Shown: piece by piece, positions 26,134 through 45,010 of the stretch
Layout of the letters: each line of letters starts with the position of its first letter
Position numbering within the stretch: the stretch's first letter is position 1
DNA from: an uncultured Bacilli bacterium
GTDB lineage: Bacteria; Bacillota_I; Bacilli_A; RF39; UBA660
DNA length: 64,000 bases
NCBI GenBank assembly: GCA_947627995.1
Contig: CANQYE010000001.1
Location: 8,889 to 72,888 of the forward strand
Direction of reading: 5' to 3'
Program-made: the position numbers and the translations under genes
Notes under the pieces: model-generated
Seen by the model: only the letters and a program-made list of their open reading frames with translations
Told to the model about the DNA's origin: nothing
The model's database searches: none

Positions 26134-27990
<1,857 letters not shown>

Positions 27991-27999
27991 TAATTAATA

Positions 28000-28023
28000 A
28001 AAGTTCTAGGTTACTAGAACTTT
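28000..28023 (+). terminator. Hairpin / possible attenuator between dnaK and pepF
   Basis: Stem AAAGTTCTAG-gtta-CTAGAACTTT then a short T-run. Confidence 0.4.
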
Positions 28024-28047
28024 TAAATGATATTGGAAAGGTTAATT

Positions 28048-29853
28048 ATGCAAAATTATAATTATAAAAATAGAAATGAAGTGCCAGAAAAGTACAAATG
28101 TGATTTATCATCATTATTTAAAAATGAAGAGGAATTTAATGAATGCCTTTTAGAAACACAAAAAGAAATATCTGAATTAAAAAAATTTAAAGGATGTACA
28201 AAAGATTCAGTTTTACTTTTTGAATTTTTAAAAGAAGAAACAAAAGTTATTGCCAAATTAGATAATTTATATACATATGCATCCTTAATGAATGATGTGT
28301 TATTAGGTAATTCTGCTAATATTGAAAGAAAAAATAAAGTGGAAATTTTAAATAGTGAATTTACATTAAATACTTGTTTCTTTGTGCCAGAATTATTAAA
28401 ACTTTCCAAAAAAGAATATCAATCTTTATTTAATAATAACCCTAGATTAAAAGAGTTTAAAGCAGAATTAGATGATACTTATAGATACAAAGAATATGCT
28501 TTATCAGAATCTGAGGAAAAAATACTTTCGGATTTAGTGCTTGCAACTGATCATTACGAAGATATCTCATCTACTCTTTTAGATAATGTCCATAATTATG
28601 GGAAAATTAAATTGCAAAATGGTGAAAGTGTAATAATCACTTCTAACAATTATCGTACTTTGCTTAAAAATAAAGATAAAATTATAAGAAAAAAAATATA
28701 TAATTCATATAATAAAACTCTTGATCAATATGGAGCAATATCTGCTGGTTTATTAAATAATTATATTAGTATGAATAATTCATTATCAAAATCACATCAC
28801 TATAAAAATAGTTGGGATGAAAAATTGTTCAATTATAACTTAAGTGATAAAGTATTTATAACATTAGTTGATACTATAGAAAGTAATTTAAAAATTTTAC
28901 AAAAATTTTATCAATTAAAAAGAAAAATTTTAAATTTAGATACTTTGCATAGTTATGATTTATATTTAGAGCCTAAAAAATCGAATAAAAACTATACAAT
29001 CGAAGAAGCACAAAAAATTACTATAGAGTCTTTAAAAGTTTTAGGAAATGAATATAGCTTAAAATTAAAAAAAGTATTTAATGATAGACATATTGATTAT
29101 TGTTCTTATAAAGGCAAATGGTCTGGAGGATATTGTACTTCTCCAATTAACAATAGTAGTAGAATATTGATGAGTTATACTAATGATTTAAAGTCAATAT
29201 CAACTATTGTTCATGAATCTGGACATGATGTTCATAGCCAATTCATTAATGAATTTAATCCATTACATTATCGTTTTCCGCAAACAATTGTTTGTGAAGT
29301 AGCATCATTGGTTAACGAATGTTTACTTTCATATTATATTGCAGAAAATGGAAAAACTAAAGACGAAAGATTATCAGGTATATATAATATTTTATCTGTT
29401 ATTGCATCAAATTTATTTGACGCAGTTAGAGAAGGAAAAAATGAGCAAGATATGTATGAAAGAGTATTTTCGGGTGATTATTTAACGAAAGATTATTTAG
29501 ATAATTTGACATATAAGTCATTAGAAAAATATTATGGTGATTCTCTGAAACTGGATAAATATTCTAAAAATTCTTGGATAACAAGATCACATTATTTTAA
29601 TAATTTTTATCTATATAGTTATGCTATTTGTATAAGTGTTGCTTCAAACGTAGCTTCTAAAATATTATCTGGTGATACAAAAATGTTAAATAAGTATATT
29701 GAATTTTTAAAACAAGGATCTGATAAGTGTCCAAAGGAAGCATTTGCTGTTTTGGGTATAAATTTGGAAGATAAAAGTGTTTATGAAAATGTAATTAAAT
29801 ATTTTGATTCATTAATTTCAAAATATTATGAAATTCTTGAAAAGGAGGAGTAA
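28048..29853 (+). CDS. pepF: Oligoendopeptidase F (M3B family)
   Basis: HESGH zinc motif. About 600 aa. The PepF N-terminal pattern is present. Confidence 0.8.
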   Translation: MQNYNYKNRNEVPEKYKCDLSSLFKNEEEFNECLLETQKEISELKKFKGCTKDSVLLFEFLKEETKVIAKLDNLYTYASLMNDVLLGNSANIERKNKVEILNSEFTLNTCFFVPELLKLSKKEYQSLFNNNPRLKEFKAELDDTYRYKEYALSESEEKILSDLVLATDHYEDISSTLLDNVHNYGKIKLQNGESVIITSNNYRTLLKNKDKIIRKKIYNSYNKTLDQYGAISAGLLNNYISMNNSLSKSHHYKNSWDEKLFNYNLSDKVFITLVDTIESNLKILQKFYQLKRKILNLDTLHSYDLYLEPKKSNKNYTIEEAQKITIESLKVLGNEYSLKLKKVFNDRHIDYCSYKGKWSGGYCTSPINNSSRILMSYTNDLKSISTIVHESGHDVHSQFINEFNPLHYRFPQTIVCEVASLVNECLLSYYIAENGKTKDERLSGIYNILSVIASNLFDAVREGKNEQDMYERVFSGDYLTKDYLDNLTYKSLEKYYGDSLKLDKYSKNSWITRSHYFNNFYLYSYAICISVASNVASKILSGDTKMLNKYIEFLKQGSDKCPKEAFAVLGINLEDKSVYENVIKYFDSLISKYYEILEKEE

Positions 29854-29856
29854 GAC

Positions 29857-30960
29857 ATGCAAAAAAAAGATTATTATGAAATATTAGGTTTACAAAAAGG
29901 TGCTAGTGAAGCAGAAATAAAAAGTGCTTTTCGTAAACTTGCGAAAAAATATCATCCGGATATTAATAAAGAAACAGGAAGTGAAGAAAAGTTCAAAGAG
30001 ATTTCGGAGGCTTATTCAGTATTATCTGATCCAGAAAAAAAAGCTAATTATGATAGATTTGGCCATGAAGGTGCTAATTTTGGTGGAGGAGCTGGATTTA
30101 GTGGTTTCCAAGGAGGTTTCGGAGACATTGATTTAGATGATATTCTTGGTGATTTATTTAACTTTGGATTTGGGCGTAGTAATAGAAGAAATTCTTCAAA
30201 ACGTCCTATGCCAGGGGAAGATGTATTAGTATCAATGAAATTAACTTTTGAAGAAGCAGTTTTTGGTTGTAAAAAAGAACTTTCTTTGACTTTAGATGAA
30301 ACATGTAAAAAATGTTCTGGATTAGGTGGACACGAAAAAGAAGATTGTCCTAAATGTAACGGACGTGGAAGAGTTATTAGTGAACAACGTACTATTTTTG
30401 GTGTATTTCAAAGTGAAACTACTTGTCCTAATTGCCATGGAGATGGATATATTTTTAAAACAAAATGTAATGCTTGCAAAGGTTTAGGCCATGTAAAAGA
30501 GAATAAAGATATTTTGGTTAATGTTCCATCAGGTGTTAATACAGGAAGTCGTCTTAAAATATCCGGGAAAGGTCCAGCTGGTCAAAATGGTGGAGAAAAT
30601 GGTGATATTTATATAGAATTTAAGGTAGCATCACATCCATTATTTGAACGTAATGAAAATGATATATATTTAACTATTCCTTTAACTATTACAGAAGCAG
30701 TGCTAGGAACTAAAAAAGAAATTCCTACTATTTATGGAAACGTTTATTTAGATATAAAACCAGGAACAAATACTAATGATAAATATCGATTAAAAGGTAA
30801 AGGTGTAGAAGTAAAAGGAAATAAAGGAGATATGTATGTTATAGCTAATGTAATTATACCATCGAAATTAACTAAGAAACAAAAAGAAATATTTAATGAC
30901 TTGAATAATACTGAACTAGACAATGATAGTGTTTTTAAAGAATTTAATAAATATTTATAA
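29857..30960 (+). CDS. dnaJ: Chaperone DnaJ
   Basis: J domain with HPD. G/F region. Four CxxCxGxG repeats. Confidence 0.9.
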
Positions 30961-32905: not shown

Positions 32906-33367
32906 ATGAATCGCATTTTTATTCAAAACTATGAATGTAAATATGGTAAAGTAAAAGTAGATGCATCTAAATTCCCTTTAAACTTTAATAATATAAATTT
33001 TTCTCCCACTCAATATCAAATTTTATATTTGCATTTTGGAAAAATAAATCCGGATTTTTCTAATTACTTACAAAAAACGATTAATTTAGATTTATATAAT
33101 GTTGAAGAGTTAATTAATAATAAAAATTATAGCATTCTTGATAGCTTTATTAATAGGATTATACATGATTATGAAAATAATAGAGCTTTTATAGAAGCAA
33201 TTAATGGGCATTTAATTATAAAAGATAATTTAATTACTAATAATGCTCCAGTAAAAGATATTGCAAATGTTTATGCAGCTATTTTAGAAACAATAAAAAA
33301 ATATACAGATCAATCATTTACAATAGAAAGTATAGGTGATAATTATGAAATGCGAAAAATGTCATAG
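32906..33367 (+). CDS. Hypothetical protein (153 aa)
   Basis: ORF only. Confidence 0.35.
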   Translation: MNRIFIQNYECKYGKVKVDASKFPLNFNNINFSPTQYQILYLHFGKINPDFSNYLQKTINLDLYNVEELINNKNYSILDSFINRIIHDYENNRAFIEAINGHLIIKDNLITNNAPVKDIANVYAAILETIKKYTDQSFTIESIGDNYEMRKMS

Positions 33368-33608
33368 TATTATATCTAAAAATGATAAATTTTGTTCAAG
33401 TTGTGGATCAAAAATTAAGTTAAAAAATAATACAGAAACTCAAGTAGTAAAAAATAATACTCGTCCACTGTATATTTTAATTGCTATAATGGGAGGAATC
33501 ATTATTTTATTAACAATCATAGTATATATTTTAATTTTTAATACTTCGAGAGATGACACAAATTGTATAACTGATCGCTATATATATAATAATCCTTATG
33601 ATATATAA
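33336..33608 (+). CDS. Zinc-ribbon membrane protein (CxxC-x12-CxxC + TM)
   Basis: CEKCHSIISKNDKFCSSCGS followed by a hydrophobic helix. Overlaps the previous ORF. Confidence 0.4.
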   Translation: MIIMKCEKCHSIISKNDKFCSSCGSKIKLKNNTETQVVKNNTRPLYILIAIMGGIIILLTIIVYILIFNTSRDDTNCITDRYIYNNPYDI

Positions 33609-33630: not shown

Positions 33631-35817
33631 GTGAATTACATAAAAGGCAAATTTAGAAATGTTATTTTTGAAAGTGAGAATGGCTATAAAATAGGTTTAT
33701 TTAGAATAAAAGAAACGAACGATGAAGAATTACGTGATTATATAAATAAAACTATTACTTTTACAGGGTATTTTGGTCAACTAAATGATAATGATACTTA
33801 TATTTTTTATGGAAAATTAAATAATCATCCTAAATATGGTATACAATATATAGTTAATAATTATGAAAAGGCTAAAATAGAAGGTAAAGATGCTGTAATT
33901 GAATTTTTATCAAGTTCTATAATAAAAGGCTGTGGGGAAAAAACAGCAATTAAAATTGTTGAAACTTTAGGTGAAAATGCAATAGAATTAATAAAAGAAA
34001 ATCCTCAAAATTTAATTTTAGTTTCTGGAATAAAATCTGATAAAGCAATGAAAATATATGATTCTATAATGAAATATGCTAGTACTGATGAGTTAATAAT
34101 TTATTTAAAAGGTTTAGGATTTTCAATGAAAGATTCTTTAAAATTAATTGAAAAATACAATGATAAAATAAAATCAATTATTGATGGGAATATATATGAA
34201 CTTGTAAATTTAATTGATTTTTCTAAACTAGATCATATTTATTTAAATTTTGGCCAACAAGATAGCGAGATAAGAATTTTAGCTTGTATTTTAGAAACTA
34301 TGAAAATAAAATCGAATGAAACAGGAGATACTTATTTTACTATTGATGAATTAAATAAATATTTAAAAAATTGTTTTAATATTGATATAAATATTAAAGT
34401 TTTTAAAAATTATTTGAGCAAATTAATAGAACAGAATAAAATAATAAATAGTGATGAGAAATACTTTTTATATGATTTATATTATTATGAAGTTAAAATT
34501 GCAGATAATTTAAAAAATATTTTTCAAAATCAATCTTTAAAGATTCCTTTTTTTGAAGAAACTTTAAAAACAATAGAAGAATTTTTACATATTAAATATA
34601 ATGATTTACAAAAAAAAGCAATTAAATCAGCTTTAGAGAATAATATCTCTATTATAACTGGTGGGCCAGGAACAGGGAAAACTACTATAATTGATGCAAT
34701 TGTAAAAGTTTATATAGAAATTAATAAGTTAAGTCATATTGATATACTAAATAATATTGCTTTATTAGCACCTACTGGTAGGGCAAGTAAACGATTAAGT
34801 GAAAAAACTAATCTTCCTGCAATGACTATTCATAGATTTTTAAAATGGAATAAAGAAAAAAATGAGTTTAAAATTAATAATGAAAATAAAAATTATCAAA
34901 GATTAGTCATTGTAGATGAAGTCAGTATGGTAGATACATTTTTAATGCATTCATTATTAGAAGGACTTACTAGTAATGTCAATCTAATATTTGTTGGGGA
35001 CGAAAATCAGTTGCCAAGTGTAGGATCAGGATTAATATTGGATGACTTAATTAAAAGTAATTTATTTAATCATGTAAGATTAGATTTAATATATCGTCAA
35101 AGTGTGAATTCTTATATACCATATCTTGCTAAAGAAATTAAAGAAAGAAAATTAACTGATTTTACTAAAATGGCAAGTGATTATAATTTTATTGAAGTAG
35201 ATAGTAGTAGTATTAAATTAATGATTGAAAAAATAATTAAAAAATCATTAGAAAAAGGGCTTAATGAAGATGATATCCAAGTGCTTATTCCAATGTATAA
35301 AGGAGAAAATGGAATTGATAATATAAATAAAGTTTTAAAAGAGTTATTTAATCCTAAAGATGAAAATACAAAAGAGTATGTTTATGGTGATATAACTTTT
35401 CGTATACACGATAAAGTCATTGAACTTTTAAATAAGCCAGATTGTAATATTTTTAATGGCGATATAGGTTATATTTGTAAAGTTTGGGAACAAAACAAAG
35501 ATAAATATGTAATTAGTGTTAATTTTGATGGTAATATTGTAGATTTAAAGAAAGATGATTTAAATACAATAAAACATGCTTATGCGATTACTATACATAA
35601 AAGTCAGGGTAGTGAATTTAAACATATTATATTTCCAATTGCTAAAGGATATAGCAGAATGCTTTATAATAAACTTATATATACAGGAGTTTCACGAGCA
35701 AAAAAATCATTGGTAATAATTGGAAAAAGTGATCTTTTTAAGGCCGCTGTTGATAATGATTATAGCGAGGTTAGAAAAACAGATTTACTTAATAAATTAT
35801 TGTATATTTTTAAATAA
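33631..35817 (+). CDS. recD2: RecD2-type ATP-dependent DNA helicase
   Basis: GTG start. Walker A GGPGTGKTT. RecD-like helicase motifs and an N-terminal OB-like domain. Confidence 0.8.
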   Translation: MNYIKGKFRNVIFESENGYKIGLFRIKETNDEELRDYINKTITFTGYFGQLNDNDTYIFYGKLNNHPKYGIQYIVNNYEKAKIEGKDAVIEFLSSSIIKGCGEKTAIKIVETLGENAIELIKENPQNLILVSGIKSDKAMKIYDSIMKYASTDELIIYLKGLGFSMKDSLKLIEKYNDKIKSIIDGNIYELVNLIDFSKLDHIYLNFGQQDSEIRILACILETMKIKSNETGDTYFTIDELNKYLKNCFNIDINIKVFKNYLSKLIEQNKIINSDEKYFLYDLYYYEVKIADNLKNIFQNQSLKIPFFEETLKTIEEFLHIKYNDLQKKAIKSALENNISIITGGPGTGKTTIIDAIVKVYIEINKLSHIDILNNIALLAPTGRASKRLSEKTNLPAMTIHRFLKWNKEKNEFKINNENKNYQRLVIVDEVSMVDTFLMHSLLEGLTSNVNLIFVGDENQLPSVGSGLILDDLIKSNLFNHVRLDLIYRQSVNSYIPYLAKEIKERKLTDFTKMASDYNFIEVDSSSIKLMIEKIIKKSLEKGLNEDDIQVLIPMYKGENGIDNINKVLKELFNPKDENTKEYVYGDITFRIHDKVIELLNKPDCNIFNGDIGYICKVWEQNKDKYVISVNFDGNIVDLKKDDLNTIKHAYAITIHKSQGSEFKHIIFPIAKGYSRMLYNKLIYTGVSRAKKSLVIIGKSDLFKAAVDNDYSEVRKTDLLNKLLYIFK

Positions 35818-35846
35818 TCAGGGGAAAATAATATTGAAGGAGTGAT

Positions 35847-36047
35847 ATGATGAAAGCAAGAACTTCAATAATGATGATGTTAAGTGGAATCGGTATAGGT
35901 GCTGCTTCTGCAACTTATTTAATGGCAAATAAGAATGTTAAAAACAAAGCATGTAAAGTTATGAACGATGCATTAGATCAAGTAGAAAATAAAATGACAC
36001 AAATGAATAATAAACAGGGGCAAAATAAAAATAAAAAAAGTAATTAA
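35847..36047 (+). CDS. Small membrane peptide (66 aa), basic Q/N/K-rich tail
   Basis: ORF with a TM segment. Own terminator downstream. Confidence 0.3.
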   Translation: MMKARTSIMMMLSGIGIGAASATYLMANKNVKNKACKVMNDALDQVENKMTQMNNKQGQNKNKKSN

Positions 36048-36060
36048 TAATATAAGTTTA

Positions 36061-36090
36061 AAATAGTATCTTAAAAGATACTATTTTAAT
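36061..36090 (+). terminator. Rho-independent terminator
   Basis: AAATAGTATCTT-aa-AAGATACTATTT then T-rich. Confidence 0.5.
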
Positions 36091-36188
36091 TTTATTACTA
36101 TTAATAAAATATATTTGTTCAATAAACAATAATTTAAATTTACTTTTTAATTTTTTTATTGTATATTTTAGTTATAAGGAATGATTTT

Positions 36189-37037
36189 ATGCGTGATATT
36201 TGGAATCCTTGGCATGGATGTAGAAAAAAATCATCTGGTTGTAAAAATTGTTATATGTATTATTTAGATAAAATTCATGGTTTGGATGGTTTTAATATAT
36301 ATAAAGTAAAAAGTAATTTTAATTATCCTATTCAGAAAGATATGCATGGAAATTATAAAGTCAAAAGCGGAGAAAAAATTAGAGTTTGCATGACTTCTGA
36401 TTTTTTTTTAGAAGAAGCTGATGAGTGGCGCAAAGATGCTTATGATATAATGGAAAAAAGAAAGGATGTAGTCTTTTGGCTACTTACAAAAAGACCAGAA
36501 AGGGTAAAAAATCATTTGCCTAAATATTTTGAAAATATTGCATTTAATGTAACTTGTGAAAATCAAGAAATGTGTGATGAAAGAATTCCTATATTACTTG
36601 ATTTACCATTTAAACATAAAGGTATCATGGTCGCACCATTTATTGGTAAAGTTGATATTTCGAAATATTTAAAAACTGGGAAAATTGAATATGTTTGTTG
36701 TGATGGCGAAAACTATGAAAATGCGCGCCCCTTGAATTATGAATGGGTTAAAAGTCTTTATGATCAATGTAAGAAATATGATGTTACTTTTGAATTTTTT
36801 GGAACAGGCAATATTTTTATTAAAAATAATAAAAAATATAGAATTTCTTCTGATCAACAAGGATTAATAGCTTATAAATCTGGACTACAATATCATGGTA
36901 AGAAAATAGTTTACGATTTAAAAATAAAAGAGCAAATGTCATTATTTTCTGAAAATGAAAATACTAATACAAAATGCAATACTTGTAATAGAAGATTTAC
37001 GTGTTCTAAAGAAAAAAATTGTGAAAAAACTATTTGA
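36189..37037 (+). CDS. DUF5131 (phage Gp37/Gp68 family) protein with C-terminal Cys-rich tail
   Basis: N-terminal MRDIWNPWHGCRKKSSGCKNCYM is the DUF5131 signature. C-terminal KCNTCNRRFTCSKEKNCEK. Confidence 0.6.
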   Translation: MRDIWNPWHGCRKKSSGCKNCYMYYLDKIHGLDGFNIYKVKSNFNYPIQKDMHGNYKVKSGEKIRVCMTSDFFLEEADEWRKDAYDIMEKRKDVVFWLLTKRPERVKNHLPKYFENIAFNVTCENQEMCDERIPILLDLPFKHKGIMVAPFIGKVDISKYLKTGKIEYVCCDGENYENARPLNYEWVKSLYDQCKKYDVTFEFFGTGNIFIKNNKKYRISSDQQGLIAYKSGLQYHGKKIVYDLKIKEQMSLFSENENTNTKCNTCNRRFTCSKEKNCEKTI

Positions 37038-37080
37038 GAAAAAAAATTATTTATAGTAAAATTATGATGAGGAGATAAGT

Positions 37081-37548
37081 ATGGAAATAGATGTAAGCAA
37101 GCTTAAATATGGAACAATTTCTAAAATAGCTATAAATGGTAGTTACAATATTCCAAAATTAATTATTAAACGCAAAGACATAATTGAAATTGCTGATGTC
37201 TTAGTTGATGGGTATTTAACTAATAACTATGATTTATATTTAAATGTTTCTACAACTATTAAAATGAATGACAGTCGTACATTAGAGCCAATTGATTTAA
37301 ATATTGATTTTTTAATTGATGAAAATATTGCTGAAAATGAAGAATATTTAAAAAATAATCAGAATAAACTTGATATTATAACCATTTTGTGGGAAAATAT
37401 TGTATTGGAAATTCCTATTCGTGTTGTTAGTGATGAAAATGAAGAATTCAAATTACAAGGTAATGGGTGGGAATTAACAGATGATAATAAGAAAATAGAT
37501 ACAAGATTAGCACCTCTTGCTGATTTGTTAAAAGAAAGGAAGGAGTGA
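37081..37548 (+). CDS. yceD: YceD/DUF177 family protein
   Basis: 155 aa acidic protein immediately upstream of rpmF, the conserved pairing. Confidence 0.7.
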   Translation: MEIDVSKLKYGTISKIAINGSYNIPKLIIKRKDIIEIADVLVDGYLTNNYDLYLNVSTTIKMNDSRTLEPIDLNIDFLIDENIAENEEYLKNNQNKLDIITILWENIVLEIPIRVVSDENEEFKLQGNGWELTDDNKKIDTRLAPLADLLKERKE

Positions 37549-37552
37549 TATT

Positions 37553-37795
37553 ATGGCAGTTCCTTTTAGAAGAACAAGTAAAACAAAAAAAAGAATGCGT
37601 CGTACACATTTAAAAAAAGATGAACCAACAGTTCTTTTATGTCCACAATGTAAAAGTCCGATAAAACCTCATCGTGCTTGTACAAAATGTGGCTACTATA
37701 AAGGCAAAAGTGTTATTAATACAGAAAATGCTGTAGTAGAAAATGCTAAGGAAGAAAAAGTAGAGAAAAAAAGTACTAAGAAAGCAGAAAAATAA
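37553..37795 (+). CDS. rpmF: 50S ribosomal protein L32 with Lys-rich C-terminal extension
   Basis: MAVPFRRTSKTKKRMRR and the CxxC...CxxC zinc ribbon. About 20 extra C-terminal residues. Confidence 0.85.
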   Translation: MAVPFRRTSKTKKRMRRTHLKKDEPTVLLCPQCKSPIKPHRACTKCGYYKGKSVINTENAVVENAKEEKVEKKSTKKAEK

Positions 37796-38040
37796 TTTTG
37801 CTTTTTTTAATGTTTTAATCCACTCGTTATTTTCAATTTTGAGTAATATAATATAGGAGATGGTAAATCTCTATGAAATTTTTAAAAAGTCTTCTTAGTA
37901 TAAAAACAATAATTAGTTTGCTTTTTAGCATTACAACTTGTATTTTAGCAATTAAAGGGTGCATAAAATCAGAAACTTTTCTTGCTATTATTATGGCTAT
38001 CATTACTTATTATTTTACTCGAAATAATAAAAGTGAGTAA

Positions 38041-40575: not shown

Positions 40576-40652
40576 GTCCTCGTAGCACAACTGGAAAATG
40601 CAGTCGCCTCCTAAGCGACAGATTGGAGGTTCAAATCCTCTCGGGGACGCCA
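40576..40652 (+). tRNA. tRNA-Arg (anticodon CCU), CCA encoded
   Basis: Hand-folded cloverleaf. Acceptor GTCCTCG/CGGGGAC. Anticodon stem GTCGC/GCGAC with loop CTCCTAA. T-arm GGAGG-TTCAAAT-CCTCT. Length 77 nt. Confidence 0.9.
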
Positions 40653-41856: not shown

Positions 41857-41887
41857 TATTATATGATAGAGAATGGGAAGGGTTATT

Positions 41888-42658
41888 ATGGCGAAGACAA
41901 ATAGAGGTAAAACTATTGCTGTTTTTTCTGCAAAAGGCGGAGTTGGGAAAACGGTTTTTACTTTAAATTTAGCTGGAATATATAAACAACTTAATAAAAA
42001 AGTTTTAATAATAGATCTTGATTTAACAAATGGGGGTATAGCTTTATCATTGAATAGAAGAGTAGATAGAACAATCTATAATTTATTTGATGATTTAAAT
42101 AATAATCGTTATAAAGAATTTAAAGATTATGTAACAAACTATGAAAAAAATTTAGATTTTATTGCTTGTCCTAAAGATCCAAGAGATGCAAATAAAATTG
42201 ATGCAAAATATATCGATATTATTATCGAGCGAGCTTCGTATTTATATGACGCAGTAATTTTAGATACTTCTCATGTATTAAATGATATTAATTTAGTTGC
42301 TCTTGATAAAGTAGATAAAATTTTATTTTTAGTTACAAATGATCCTTTAGATTTAAAAAATGTTAAGTCTTTAATAAGTATATTTAAAAATTTAGATAAA
42401 ACAAATTATAAAATGATTTTAAATAATTCTTGCAATTTAAATAAAGATTATTTTTCATTATATGATATCAAAAATATTTTAAAAACAAATATTGATTATA
42501 TTTTAACTCAAAATTTTTATATCAAGAACATAGATATATTTCTTCTTAATGGGAAAATATTTATTATGGATAAGAAGATTGCTTCATCCAAAGATTATGG
42601 AGTAATGTTAACTATCGCAACTGATATATTTAAAGAAGGTGATGGAAAAAATGAGTAA
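41888..42658 (+). CDS. ParA/MinD-family ATPase, TadZ/CpaE-like
   Basis: Deviant Walker A AVFSAKGGVGKT. Sits upstream of the CpaF-type ATPase. Confidence 0.6.
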   Translation: MAKTNRGKTIAVFSAKGGVGKTVFTLNLAGIYKQLNKKVLIIDLDLTNGGIALSLNRRVDRTIYNLFDDLNNNRYKEFKDYVTNYEKNLDFIACPKDPRDANKIDAKYIDIIIERASYLYDAVILDTSHVLNDINLVALDKVDKILFLVTNDPLDLKNVKSLISIFKNLDKTNYKMILNNSCNLNKDYFSLYDIKNILKTNIDYILTQNFYIKNIDIFLLNGKIFIMDKKIASSKDYGVMLTIATDIFKEGDGKNE

Positions 42659-43973
42659 GTCTTTAATTGAAGAATTTAATGTTAAAGTAAATAAGCAAAA
42701 ACCTTATATAGTAAATGATTATGATATTTTTCCAGATAAAAATTTATTAGATGAATTACGTAATAAGATAATTGGTAATTTAATTGATAAAGAAATTCCT
42801 AAAGAAAAAATTAATGAGTTTATTGATGATGAAATAAATTTGGCTTTAGAGGGGCATAATTTAACCAATTTAGAAAGAAGTCATATATATAATTTAATTG
42901 ATAATGAAATAAATGGTTTTGGGCCTTTAAATGAAATTTTGAAAGATAATAATGTAACAGAAATAATGGTAAATAGTCCTAAAGAAATTTATATAGAAAC
43001 TGATGGAAAATTAGTTAGAGATGAAAGTATTTCATTTATTAATAATGAACATATTATTAGAACTATTCAAAGGCTTATCTCACCGATGGGTAAAACAATA
43101 AATACTAAAAATCCTATTGTTGACTCAAGGCTAATGGATGGTTCAAGGATTAATGCTGTAATCCCACCATTATCTATTAAAGGTCCAGTATTAACTATTC
43201 GTAAATTTAAGCCTTATTTAAATACAATTGATGATTTAATAAGATCTGGTTCTTTAACACCATATATGGCAAGATTTCTTGAAGCTGCTGTAATTGGTAA
43301 ATTGAACATTATTATTTGTGGTGGATCAGGAAGTGGAAAAACAACTCTTTTAAATATTTTAAGTAGTTTTATAAACGATAATGAAAGAATTATTACTATT
43401 GAAGATGCCGCAGAATTAAAATTAAAACAAAAACATGTATTATCCTTAGAAACACGTCCGAATAATTATGAAAATGAAGGAGAAATTACTATTCGTGATT
43501 TAGTAATCAATTCATTAAGAATGCGACCTGATAGAATTATTGTCGGTGAAGTTCGTGGGAAAGAAGCATTTGATATGATGCAAGCTATGAATACTGGACA
43601 TGATGGGTCAATTACTACTCTTCATGCTAATAGTCCTAAAGATGCTTTAAATAGGTTAGAGACAATGGTTATGATGAGTGATATGGGTCTTCCACTAAAT
43701 GCTGTAAAAGAATATATTTATAATGCAATAGATTTAGTTATAAATGTTGAACGATTAAGTGATGGTAGACGAAAAATAACAAGTATATGTGAAGTTGATA
43801 AAATAGAGGATAATGAAATAAAGTTAAAAGAGATATTTGCTTTTAAAATTAATGGATTATCTTCAAAAAATATGGTTACAGGAGAATATATTTTATATAA
43901 ATTTATTCCAAAAGTTTTTTATAAACTAAAGAAAAGAGGAATTACATCTTTAAGTGATATTTTTGAAAAATAA
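42651..43973 (+). CDS. CpaF/TadA-type (VirB11-like) secretion ATPase
   Basis: NVTEIMVNSPKEIYIE. Walker A GGSGSGKTTLLN. Walker B, His box and Asp box present. Confidence 0.8.
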   Translation: MSKSLIEEFNVKVNKQKPYIVNDYDIFPDKNLLDELRNKIIGNLIDKEIPKEKINEFIDDEINLALEGHNLTNLERSHIYNLIDNEINGFGPLNEILKDNNVTEIMVNSPKEIYIETDGKLVRDESISFINNEHIIRTIQRLISPMGKTINTKNPIVDSRLMDGSRINAVIPPLSIKGPVLTIRKFKPYLNTIDDLIRSGSLTPYMARFLEAAVIGKLNIIICGGSGSGKTTLLNILSSFINDNERIITIEDAAELKLKQKHVLSLETRPNNYENEGEITIRDLVINSLRMRPDRIIVGEVRGKEAFDMMQAMNTGHDGSITTLHANSPKDALNRLETMVMMSDMGLPLNAVKEYIYNAIDLVINVERLSDGRRKITSICEVDKIEDNEIKLKEIFAFKINGLSSKNMVTGEYILYKFIPKVFYKLKKRGITSLSDIFEK

Positions 43974-43987
43974 AAGAAGGTGATTAG

Positions 43988-45010
43988 GTGAAAAATATAA
44001 ATTGGGAATTATTAATTTTTCAAGTTATTATTGCAATAATTATTGTTTTTCTAATCATTTTTTTCATAAAAATAAAATCAAATTTAAAATTAGAAAAAAG
44101 ATTCTCATATTTTAGTTTAAATACATTAAATGAAGAAAAAGAGCTTTCATTCCTAGATTATATTTTTAATAAGTTATGGAAATTTGTTCATAATTATGCA
44201 AAATTTTTAAATCATTTTAAATGTTTTAGAAAATATGGGTTAAAATATGAGAAATACATTCCATCAAAAAATAAATTTAAAATTAATGGTACTGATTATG
44301 TTGTAATAAAATTTATAACTGGATTAATTGTTGTTTTAGTAGCAGTAATATATAATATTATTAATAGAAATAATATTAATTTCCTTATTTATGTTATTTT
44401 ATTTTTATTTAGTTATACAATTGTAGATATTTTACTAGATATAAAATTTAAAAGAAAAATAAAAAATGTAAAAAAAGATTTGTATAAAACTATTATTATC
44501 ATGAATAATTCTTTTAAATCTGGAAAAACAATATTAAAAGCGGTTGATAATGTAAGAAAATCTTTAAAAGGCGATATAGCAGATGAATATAATAAAATTT
44601 ATACAGATTTATGTTATGGACTTTCTATTGAATCAGCATTTCAAAGATTTTATGAGCGAGTTAAAATAGAACAAATAAAATATATTGTTCTTTCAATATC
44701 TATTTTAAATAAAAGTGGGTGCAATATTAATGAGATATTTAATTCAATTGAAAAAAATGATTTAGATGATCAAAAAATTAATAATACAATAAAAACACAA
44801 TTATTATCTAGTAAATTATTTTTTAATTGTGCTTTAAGTTTGCCAATAATTTTAGTAAGCATAATATTTATTATAAATAGAAATTACTTCAATCCTTTTA
44901 TTTTTACAATTGTAGGTGTTTTATTTTTGATCTTATTAATTAGTTTATATTTATTATATATAATTCTAATAAAAAAGATATTCGAGGTTGATATAGATGA
45001 AAGAGTTTAG
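43988..45010 (+). CDS. TadB-like inner-membrane platform protein (T2SS-F domain)
   Basis: GTG start. TM-flanked cytoplasmic domain in GspF-like topology. Position after the ATPase. Confidence 0.55.
   Translation: MKNINWELLIFQVIIAIIIVFLIIFFIKIKSNLKLEKRFSYFSLNTLNEEKELSFLDYIFNKLWKFVHNYAKFLNHFKCFRKYGLKYEKYIPSKNKFKINGTDYVVIKFITGLIVVLVAVIYNIINRNNINFLIYVILFLFSYTIVDILLDIKFKRKIKNVKKDLYKTIIIMNNSFKSGKTILKAVDNVRKSLKGDIADEYNKIYTDLCYGLSIESAFQRFYERVKIEQIKYIVLSISILNKSGCNINEIFNSIEKNDLDDQKINNTIKTQLLSSKLFFNCALSLPIILVSIIFIINRNYFNPFIFTIVGVLFLILLISLYLLYIILIKKIFEVDIDERV

Follow-up and report, generated by a model that had tools for sequence, protein, structure and literature searches.

A stand-alone chromosomal DUF5131 protein of a Cys-tailed clade, with a predicted radical-SAM-like fold, at a single-gene indel upstream of yceD-rpmF

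Results

A stand-alone DUF5131 gene between recD2 and yceD-rpmF

The window, a 64,000-nucleotide stretch of DNA from an uncultured Bacilli bacterium, contains a stand-alone chromosomal DUF5131 gene whose product belongs to a clade with a Cys-rich C-terminal tail and carries CX6CX2C, the motif of its subgroup, in place of CX3CX2C. Predicted models give the protein a radical-SAM-like partial barrel, and the position of the gene next to ribosomal genes appears to be incidental. Taken jointly, this identity, fold class, stand-alone status and incidental position form a reading that we consider likely.

The interval 35847-37037 resolved in the ORF listing into two separate plus-strand ORFs, and profile searches yielded the gene order recD2, 66-aa ORF, DUF5131 gene, yceD, rpmF (Table 1). 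The window has a GC content of 24.4% and reads well with genetic code 11; the DUF5131 gene has a GC3 of 0.145, the same as its neighbours (0.10-0.16). We assigned its start to the ATG at 36189, which is preceded by AAGGA and is consistent with the family; the TTG start at 36159 proposed by the ORF finder (292 aa) is an upstream extension of the same ORF.

Table 1. Features of the recD2-rpmF region, in window coordinates
Feature	Position	Strand	Evidence and remarks
Small protein, 66 aa	35847..36047	+	ORF listing; one hydrophobic Gly/Ala-rich segment
973-bp segment without counterpart in the closest relative (54 bp there)	36051..37023	.	blastn, alignment
Terminator-like hairpin closing the recD2/small-peptide unit	36058..36089	+	14-bp AT-rich stem, 4-nt loop, then AAUUUUAUU
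Weak promoter-like TTTACT-N17-TATATT 5' of the DUF5131 gene	36139..36167	+	9/12 positions
DUF5131 (PF07505) CDS, 282 aa, stop TGA	36189..37037	+	
Codons for Cys11-x6-Cys18-x2-Cys21, presumed SAM-binding [4Fe-4S] motif	36219..36251	+	Invariance in alignments
Reduced C-terminal Cys motif Cys263-x2-Cys266-x5-Cys272-x5-Cys278	36975..37022	+	Homolog alignment
Promoter-like TTGAGA-N17-TAAAAT 5' of yceD	37034..37062	+	10/12 positions; present also in L111
yceD, large-subunit rRNA accumulation protein family	37081..37548	+	PF02620, E 6.4e-12
rpmF, ribosomal protein L32	37553..37795	+	PF01783, E 6.1e-22
Terminator-like hairpin and U-run closing yceD-rpmF	37780..37808	+	-10.6 kcal/mol, 10-bp stem, then UUU

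The 66-aa peptide has its hydrophobic segment at residues 8-26 (Kyte-Doolittle 1.54 in a 19-residue window) and obtained no match in Pfam or NCBIfam. Homologs of it lie directly 3' of recD2 on three contigs without DUF5131, namely L102 (49% identity), L104 (38%) and L111; on the first two, recD2 and the peptide homolog are followed by unrelated genes. The hairpin downstream of the peptide forms a perfect 14-bp stem (-15.8 kcal/mol, z -6.0, none of 200 shuffles as good) and is followed by a U-rich stretch; a consensus terminator scanner missed it since the stem holds fewer than three G-C pairs. It is a credible terminator of the recD2/small-peptide unit. The small membrane peptide with its own terminator that the preliminary description had reported beside the DUF5131 gene is therefore borne out by the hydrophobic segment and the hairpin, but it follows recD2 in relatives and is not a companion of DUF5131. 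We concluded that the peptide belongs with recD2, is unrelated to DUF5131 and is a neighbour only. The nearest RecD2 is 62% identical, and sequences labelled 'Bacilli bacterium' and 'Ca. Coprovivens' are among the RecD2 relatives at 55-58%; the RecD2 relatives place the organism among poorly sampled low-GC Bacilli.

The protein is a DUF5131 member with a reduced Cys tail

The 282-aa protein matched PF07505 with an E-value of 2.3e-37 and 129.2 bits (gathering cut-off 28.9) over profile positions 9-221 of 243, confirming by HMM the family assignment that had been made from the WNPWHGC...GCKNCY N-terminus. This N-terminus, IWNPWHGC-x6-C-x2-CY, is invariant among the aligned homologs; the window protein begins with MRDIWNPWHGC and the clade consensus with MHDIWNPWHGC. 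The three Cys residues in C11-x6-C18-x2-C21 are invariant in both alignments and in 72/72 diverse representatives, which comprised groups with at least four and with at most one tail Cys. Conserved throughout the family, in tailed and tail-less members alike, are further C67, D71, K101/R102, E124/Q126, E174, R180 and C194, and the window protein keeps every one of them, K101, R102, E124 and Q126 included, together with C11, C18 and C21.

The family is large: 15,917 representative clusters (50% identity) match the window protein at E <= 1e-3. Its 120 best homologs, of about 291 aa, are 55-63% identical to it at a query coverage of 96-100% (99% in nearly all), and public records label clade members 'DUF5131 family protein' or 'phage Gp37/Gp68 family protein'. 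Judged by its sequence, the window protein is a genuine DUF5131 member, placed by descent in a large, already annotated and uncharacterised clade. The statement that the function of the family is unknown stood up as well: a literature search on DUF5131, PF07505 and Gp37 Gp68 returned the RadicalSAM.org classification and bare annotations, and no biochemistry for any member.

The preliminary description had taken the Cys-rich tail for an addition in this copy. The tail is instead clade-wide, with Cx2Cx5Cx2Cx2Cx2C present in 118 of the 120 best homologs, and the window protein, as one of the two exceptions, has it reduced from six to four Cys. C263, C266, C272 and C278 correspond to tail Cys 1, 2, 3 and 5 and leave Cx2Cx5Cx5C, while Cys 4 is replaced by Glu and Cys 6 by Thr. 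Because the protein is otherwise 56-64% identical to the clade over 99% of its length, the alignments place it by descent within the Cys-tailed clade, its motif having degenerated. Among diverse full-length representatives of the wider family, 55/79 have no or one Cys in the last 45 residues, and Cys-rich tails occur in a minority of clades; two such proteins (P0294 and P0304) have Cx2Cx5C plus one further Cys, the same four-Cys pattern that is left in the window protein.

We scanned the C-terminal 95-130 residues of ten tailed proteins against Pfam at E <= 10 and obtained no SPASM match and a single insignificant match to Fer4_2 (E 0.41); the HMMs thus lend no support to a SPASM or ferredoxin identity of the tail. 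C67 and C194 were considered as extra auxiliary-cluster ligands co-varying with the tail and were rejected, both being conserved in tail-less members too.

The closest relative carries an empty site

The closest YceD (74% identity) is encoded on contig L111, where recD2, a 64-aa peptide, yceD and rpmF follow one another without DUF5131. By blastn, positions 20-1632 of L111 correspond to window positions 34435-36050 (82.6% identity) and positions 1687-2471 to 37024-37807 (82.9% identity), and the intervening segment listed in Table 1 comprises the AT-rich spacer and the DUF5131 gene minus its last four codons and stop. Homology with L111 resumes right after the Cys278 codon (37020-37022), and the last four codons (EKTI) together with the TGA stop lie in DNA that is intergenic in L111. 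The sixth tail Cys would have been lost because the 3' end of the gene was clipped at this junction. At the borders of the indel, we found no meaningful repeats, direct or inverted, of the kind that mobile elements show.

None of the other relatives examined has DUF5131 beside its recD2 or yceD flank, and in more distant relatives yceD is preceded by other genes. Since no examined relative has the gene at either flank and the distribution of the clade is patchy, parsimony favours a gain in the lineage of the window, and a loss in that of L111 is the less likely alternative. In either case, its absence from an otherwise collinear site in the closest relative means that the gene is not core to the lineage, and the preliminary description withstands the objection of a widespread core gene that it had itself raised. 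The gene would have arrived, or been retained, as a single-gene segment of ~0.95 kb placed downstream of the terminator that closes the recD2/small-peptide unit and upstream of a pre-existing yceD-rpmF promoter, with its 3' end clipped at the junction.

The clipped 3' end raises the possibility of a decaying, non-functional remnant that has lost two tail Cys and drifts in a reduced, AT-rich genome. At columns that are otherwise invariant, the protein departs uniquely in eight cases, more than any other sequence in the alignment, among them C275E, C281T and W85Y, and a four-residue deletion of the WGDG segment removes a near-invariant Trp; its last four codons lie in DNA homologous to intergenic DNA of the relative, and its tail is modelled with a pLDDT below 50, compared with 79-90 for the tail of the six-Cys homolog P0046, a gap to which differing alignment depths may add. 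Against decay, the full-length ORF is uninterrupted and has the same sequence in five or more independent assemblies, it has a good ribosome-binding site, and about 100 invariant core positions are kept, including all five family-wide Cys. Its identity to the clade resembles that among other clade members, and four-Cys tails occur in other, presumably functional, clades. We consider decay unlikely. Because its four Cys match the minimal pattern of other DUF5131 clades, the window protein is probably still functional, and because it has the most unique deviations, it may at the same time be impaired or weakened.

A predicted radical-SAM-like barrel

DUF5131 is an SFLD radical-SAM subgroup and forms Megacluster-5-2 of RadicalSAM.org, for which CX6CX2C is stated as a variant cluster motif, the superfamily admitting variant Cys spacings; spore photoproduct lyase is placed in Megacluster-5 along with it, as Megacluster-5-3 (PMC9477430). 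The window protein, with CX6CX2C and not the canonical CX3CX2C, obtained no match to the general Radical_SAM model PF04055 at E <= 0.01, and a sequence search returned no solved homolog at E <= 1. AlphaFold models were obtained for the window protein (pLDDT 76.5) and for P0046 (pLDDT 90.5). Foldseek against the PDB gave weak matches only, and the best structural matches of both models were consistently radical SAM enzymes, with RlmN among the structural matches. The predicted models thus show a radical-SAM-like partial (beta/alpha)6 barrel in which the cluster loop follows beta-1.

A protein of TIM-barrel-like fold that binds Fe-S or Zn without radical SAM chemistry, such as a hydrolase or lyase whose metal site is structural, is improbable: the top structural matches are radical SAM enzymes for two models, the three-Cys motif is N-terminal and follows beta-1 as in the superfamily, two curated resources (SFLD and RadicalSAM.org) treat DUF5131 as a radical SAM subgroup, and NCBIfam gives a weak match to radical SAM mobile pair protein A (3e-05). 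By analogy with the superfamily, it is quite likely that the DUF5131 protein uses radical-SAM chemistry. The three N-terminal Cys would ligate a [4Fe-4S] cluster, with SAM bound at its unique iron; on reduction, SAM would be cleaved to a 5'-deoxyadenosyl radical, which would then abstract a substrate hydrogen atom. An auxiliary metal centre, most likely one [4Fe-4S] cluster and less likely Zn, would be bound by the C-terminal Cx2Cx5C...C module and serve electron transfer or substrate positioning. For the window copy, with its four Cys, we give a functional auxiliary site an even chance.

The substrate may be a nucleic acid or nucleotide-derived, a low-confidence guess to which we were led by the common membership of DUF5131 and spore photoproduct lyase in Megacluster-5 and by occasional DNA-related neighbours of the homologs (YjbR, an RNase T-type exonuclease, an MGMT-type DNA-binding domain protein). 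Equally tentative is the wider proposal that members of the tailed clade are radical SAM enzymes that bear an auxiliary Fe-S tail and carry out an undescribed housekeeping or repair reaction, such as nucleic-acid lesion reversal of the kind performed by the related spore photoproduct lyase.

Chromosomal distribution without a conserved partner gene

Among the matches listed, the tailed clade occurs in metagenome-assembled genomes and isolates, whose proteins typically share 52-62% identity with that of the window. Its hosts among these matches are Clostridia (Ruminococcus, Lachnospiraceae, Oscillospiraceae, Christensenella), gut Alphaproteobacteria, Selenomonas and Erysipelotrichaceae, together with single bins labelled Synergistaceae and Bacteroidales; cultured carriers are Lachnospira multipara ATCC 19207, Ruminococcus flavefaciens FD-1 and Selenomonas ruminis. 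This patchy, gut- and rumen-centred spread suggests lateral transfer. We clustered all ORFs from 80 genome loci among the matches listed, the best of which reach 60-62% identity and none of which comes from the species of the window, and assigned Pfam families to the immediate neighbours. The 125 immediate neighbours, from ~66 of the genomes listed, fell into 124 Pfam families, the commonest being YjbR (n=4), and neither the clustering of the 80 loci listed nor the Pfam tally revealed a conserved partner gene; the partners that the preliminary description had suggested looking for in other genomes did not emerge from the ~66 homolog genomes listed. A YjbR-family fusion protein upstream (4-7 loci) and flavodoxin-like genes (some loci) were tried as partners and are too infrequent. 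The tailed clade is chromosomal, scattered and lacks a conserved partner gene.

According to the NCBIfam description of TcmP, typical DUF5131 members often occur in prophages next to a TcmP-like partner, and the gene could belong to, or be left over from, a phage-derived or anti-phage system such as this DUF5131/TcmP 'three-Cys-motif' pair or the PDC-M30/PDC-M41 systems. The family is named after phage proteins, the window protein matches PHROG 2045 (unknown function), and PADLOC models PDC-M30B (7e-32) and PDC-M41B (2e-30) match its residues 4-212. The PADLOC PDC systems are themselves candidates only, and a literature search on TcmP and PDC-M30 returned annotations and no mechanism. At the locus, neither the adjacent peptide nor RecD2 matched a PADLOC A component, so that the two components of PDC-M30/PDC-M41 are not assembled here, and no TcmP-like gene adjoins the DUF5131 gene, its neighbours by Pfam and NCBIfam being the 66-aa peptide and YceD. 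No phage genes, integrase or repeats were found within +/-8 kb, although the preliminary description had assumed a phage origin and proposed a search for flanking remnants. Within ~8 kb lie dnaK, dnaJ, a MiaB-like methylthiotransferase gene, recD2, yceD, rpmF, a DAG kinase gene and Tad-pilus genes; with such housekeeping flanks, a single-gene indel and neither mobility genes nor target-site duplication nor terminal repeats, the locus does not look like prophage or mobile cargo. The tailed clade is also nearly absent from viral contigs: 2.9 million of them held 16 loci, 14 of which lie within 3 kb of a contig end, as is expected of host flanks in prophage calls. With no conserved neighbour in the ~66 genomes listed, a component or relic of a phage or defence system is, in our view, very improbable.

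Transcription signals and the adjacency to yceD-rpmF

The preliminary description had noted a long AT-rich leader in front of the DUF5131 gene. A 141-nt spacer (36048-36188) with a GC content of 10.6% is indeed present, but it consists mostly of the upstream terminator and possible promoter space, for which reason the 5' UTR of the DUF5131 gene may be short. Rfam returned nothing on the spacer at the gathering threshold or at E <= 1; a riboswitch or leader RNA was accordingly rejected, the structure found there being the upstream terminator.

Promoter-like matches were overall at chance level, with 53 sites in the region versus 58 expected in shuffles of this AT-rich DNA. The element 5' of yceD, whose -35 hexamer contains the TGA stop of the DUF5131 gene, recurs in L111, where DUF5131 is missing, with both hexamers and their spacing unchanged. 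Because the element is conserved across the border of the indel, a stronger argument than the motif match itself, yceD-rpmF probably keeps its own promoter. No hairpin was found in the 43-nt gap that separates the DUF5131 stop (37037) from the start of yceD (37081), in agreement with the lack of a terminator reported earlier, and read-through is therefore possible. Co-transcription of DUF5131 and yceD, if any, would be such read-through and not a designed operon; comparison with the relatives contradicts the idea of a ribosomal operon. We regard the adjacency as a positional accident.

A gene tied to the ribosome, co-transcribed with yceD-rpmF and modifying rRNA or a ribosomal protein in the manner of RlmN/Cfr or RimO, would suit the terminator-free gap and the presence of RlmN among the structural matches and is nevertheless highly improbable, as the adjacency occurs in this species only (yceD, rpmF or recD2 near the DUF5131 homolog in 0/80 loci listed), the closest relative has yceD-rpmF without DUF5131, yceD of more distant relatives is preceded by different genes, translation does not emerge as a theme from the neighbour tally, and conservation of the promoter-like element 5' of yceD does not depend on the gene.

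Discussion

DUF5131 is one of the large radical-SAM subgroups without an assigned reaction. Its tailed clade comprises thousands of sequences from anaerobes of the gut and rumen that belong to at least five phyla, likewise with no reaction assigned, and the conserved six-Cys C-terminal module of this big chromosomal clade is covered by no domain model. The locus described here clears away three misleading cues, namely phage origin, the small peptide as a partner and a ribosomal operon, and the empty-site comparison provides a clean example of a single-gene indel against a ribosomal-protein promoter. It further reveals a clade without a partner gene and a naturally occurring four-Cys variant of the tail; otherwise, it does not make the function of the family more tractable. 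As there is no obligatory partner gene, the tailed clade should be assayable as a single protein. If the clade is an enzyme with an auxiliary Fe-S tail, the 3'-clipped four-Cys variant of the window would represent a natural experiment on dispensable tail Cys.

Comparison with known systems

In the candidate systems PDC-M30 and PDC-M41, an A and a B component occur together. The B-component HMMs match the barrel region of the window protein (~1e-30 to 1e-32) and end at residue 212, whereas the window locus is without an A component. Spore photoproduct lyase has no sequence-level match to the window protein, the identity being only 12-15%; it has CX3CX2C and a DNA-binding beta-hairpin region, whereas DUF5131 has CX6CX2C. 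SPASM/twitch enzymes such as SuiB and anSME have CX2CX5CX3C, compared with Cx2Cx5Cx2Cx2Cx2C in the tailed DUF5131 clade, whose module is much shorter than a SPASM/twitch domain and binds a cluster only putatively. We infer an auxiliary metal site analogous to those of twitch/SPASM domains, an analogy in which homology is not demonstrable. With the DUF5131/PF07505 family, finally, the window protein shares the full HMM match, the CX6CX2C motif and the family-wide conserved residues; typical members have ~240-260 aa and no Cys-rich tail, whereas the clade of the window protein is longer (~291 aa), partner-less, chromosomal and Cys-tailed.

Sequence features of the DUF5131 protein and the promoter-like element 5' of yceD

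In an alignment of homologs, the number of unique deviations per sequence was highest in the DUF5131 protein of the window (gene 36189-37037). At residues 111-113 a four-residue deletion converts the consensus DWGDGW to K----YF, by which a near-invariant Trp is lost, and a second Trp is changed as well (W85Y). The promoter-like element upstream of yceD is common to the window and L111, the contig of the closest relative, and is conserved across the border of the indel between the two loci. In the window, its -35 hexamer contains the DUF5131 stop codon TGA.

Coordinates of features in the window and in related loci (L012, L027, L028 and L043 carry DUF5131 homologs; L102 and L104, relatives with recD2 followed by the small-protein gene)
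Feature	Position	Remark
YjbR-domain protein, 5' of DUF5131 homologs	L027 5247-5996; L028 5247-5996; L012 4677-5438; L043 1235-2044	
Two overlapping small ORFs, 5' of recD2	window 32906-33367 and 33336-33608	both called as genes in ENA contig
RecD2, housekeeping-type	window 33631-35817	domains OB_YrrC, HHH_RecD2, SH3_13
Small protein adjoining recD2	window 35847-36047; L102 7216-7380; L104 7211-7351; L111 1435-1629	
Promoter-like TTGAGA-N17-TAAAAT, 5' of yceD	window 37034-37062; L111 about 1697-1725	
dnaK-dnaJ region	window 26140-30960	608-aa ORF at 28027-29853 between dnaK and dnaJ
tRNA gene	window 40576-40649	
Tad/type IV pilus-like cluster	window 41873-45010	CpaE/ParA-like ATPase, T2SSE ATPase, T2SSF membrane protein

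Genomic neighbourhood of DUF5131 homologs

Among the 80 homolog loci compared, the only recurrent neighbour of DUF5131 homologs was a YjbR-domain protein of about 250 aa, encoded immediately 5' on the same strand in four to seven Ruminococcus/Clostridia loci; in L012, an RNase T-type exonuclease gene intervenes. This protein combines an N-terminal YjbR (MmcQ-like DNA-binding) domain with a C-terminal half of about 130 aa lacking an assigned domain. Fourteen of the 16 viral-contig loci (IMG/VR) with a relative of the DUF5131 gene lie less than 3 kb from a contig end, suggesting that these copies represent host flanking DNA caught in prophage predictions and not true phage cargo.

Other genes in the window

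Conserved directly 3' of recD2 in several low-GC Bacilli, the small protein (46-66 aa) combines a hydrophobic, Gly/Ala-rich segment at its N-terminus with a tail rich in Lys and Asn. Neither Pfam nor NCBIfam returned a family for it, and a weak match to PHROG 736 (E 9e-4) was the sole family-level match. Of the two overlapping ORFs upstream of recD2, the first (153 aa, 32906-33367) had no family match, and the second (90 aa, 33336-33608) encodes a zinc ribbon (PF13240) at the N-terminus, with a hydrophobic segment after it. The sole domain match of the 608-aa ORF was the oligopeptidase F N-terminal domain. The Tad/type IV pilus-like cluster lies downstream of the tRNA gene. RecD2 scored strongly against PADLOC helicase models (typeIV_RecD, 3e-68; also PDC-S68), which looks like helicase-to-helicase homology rather than evidence of a defence system.
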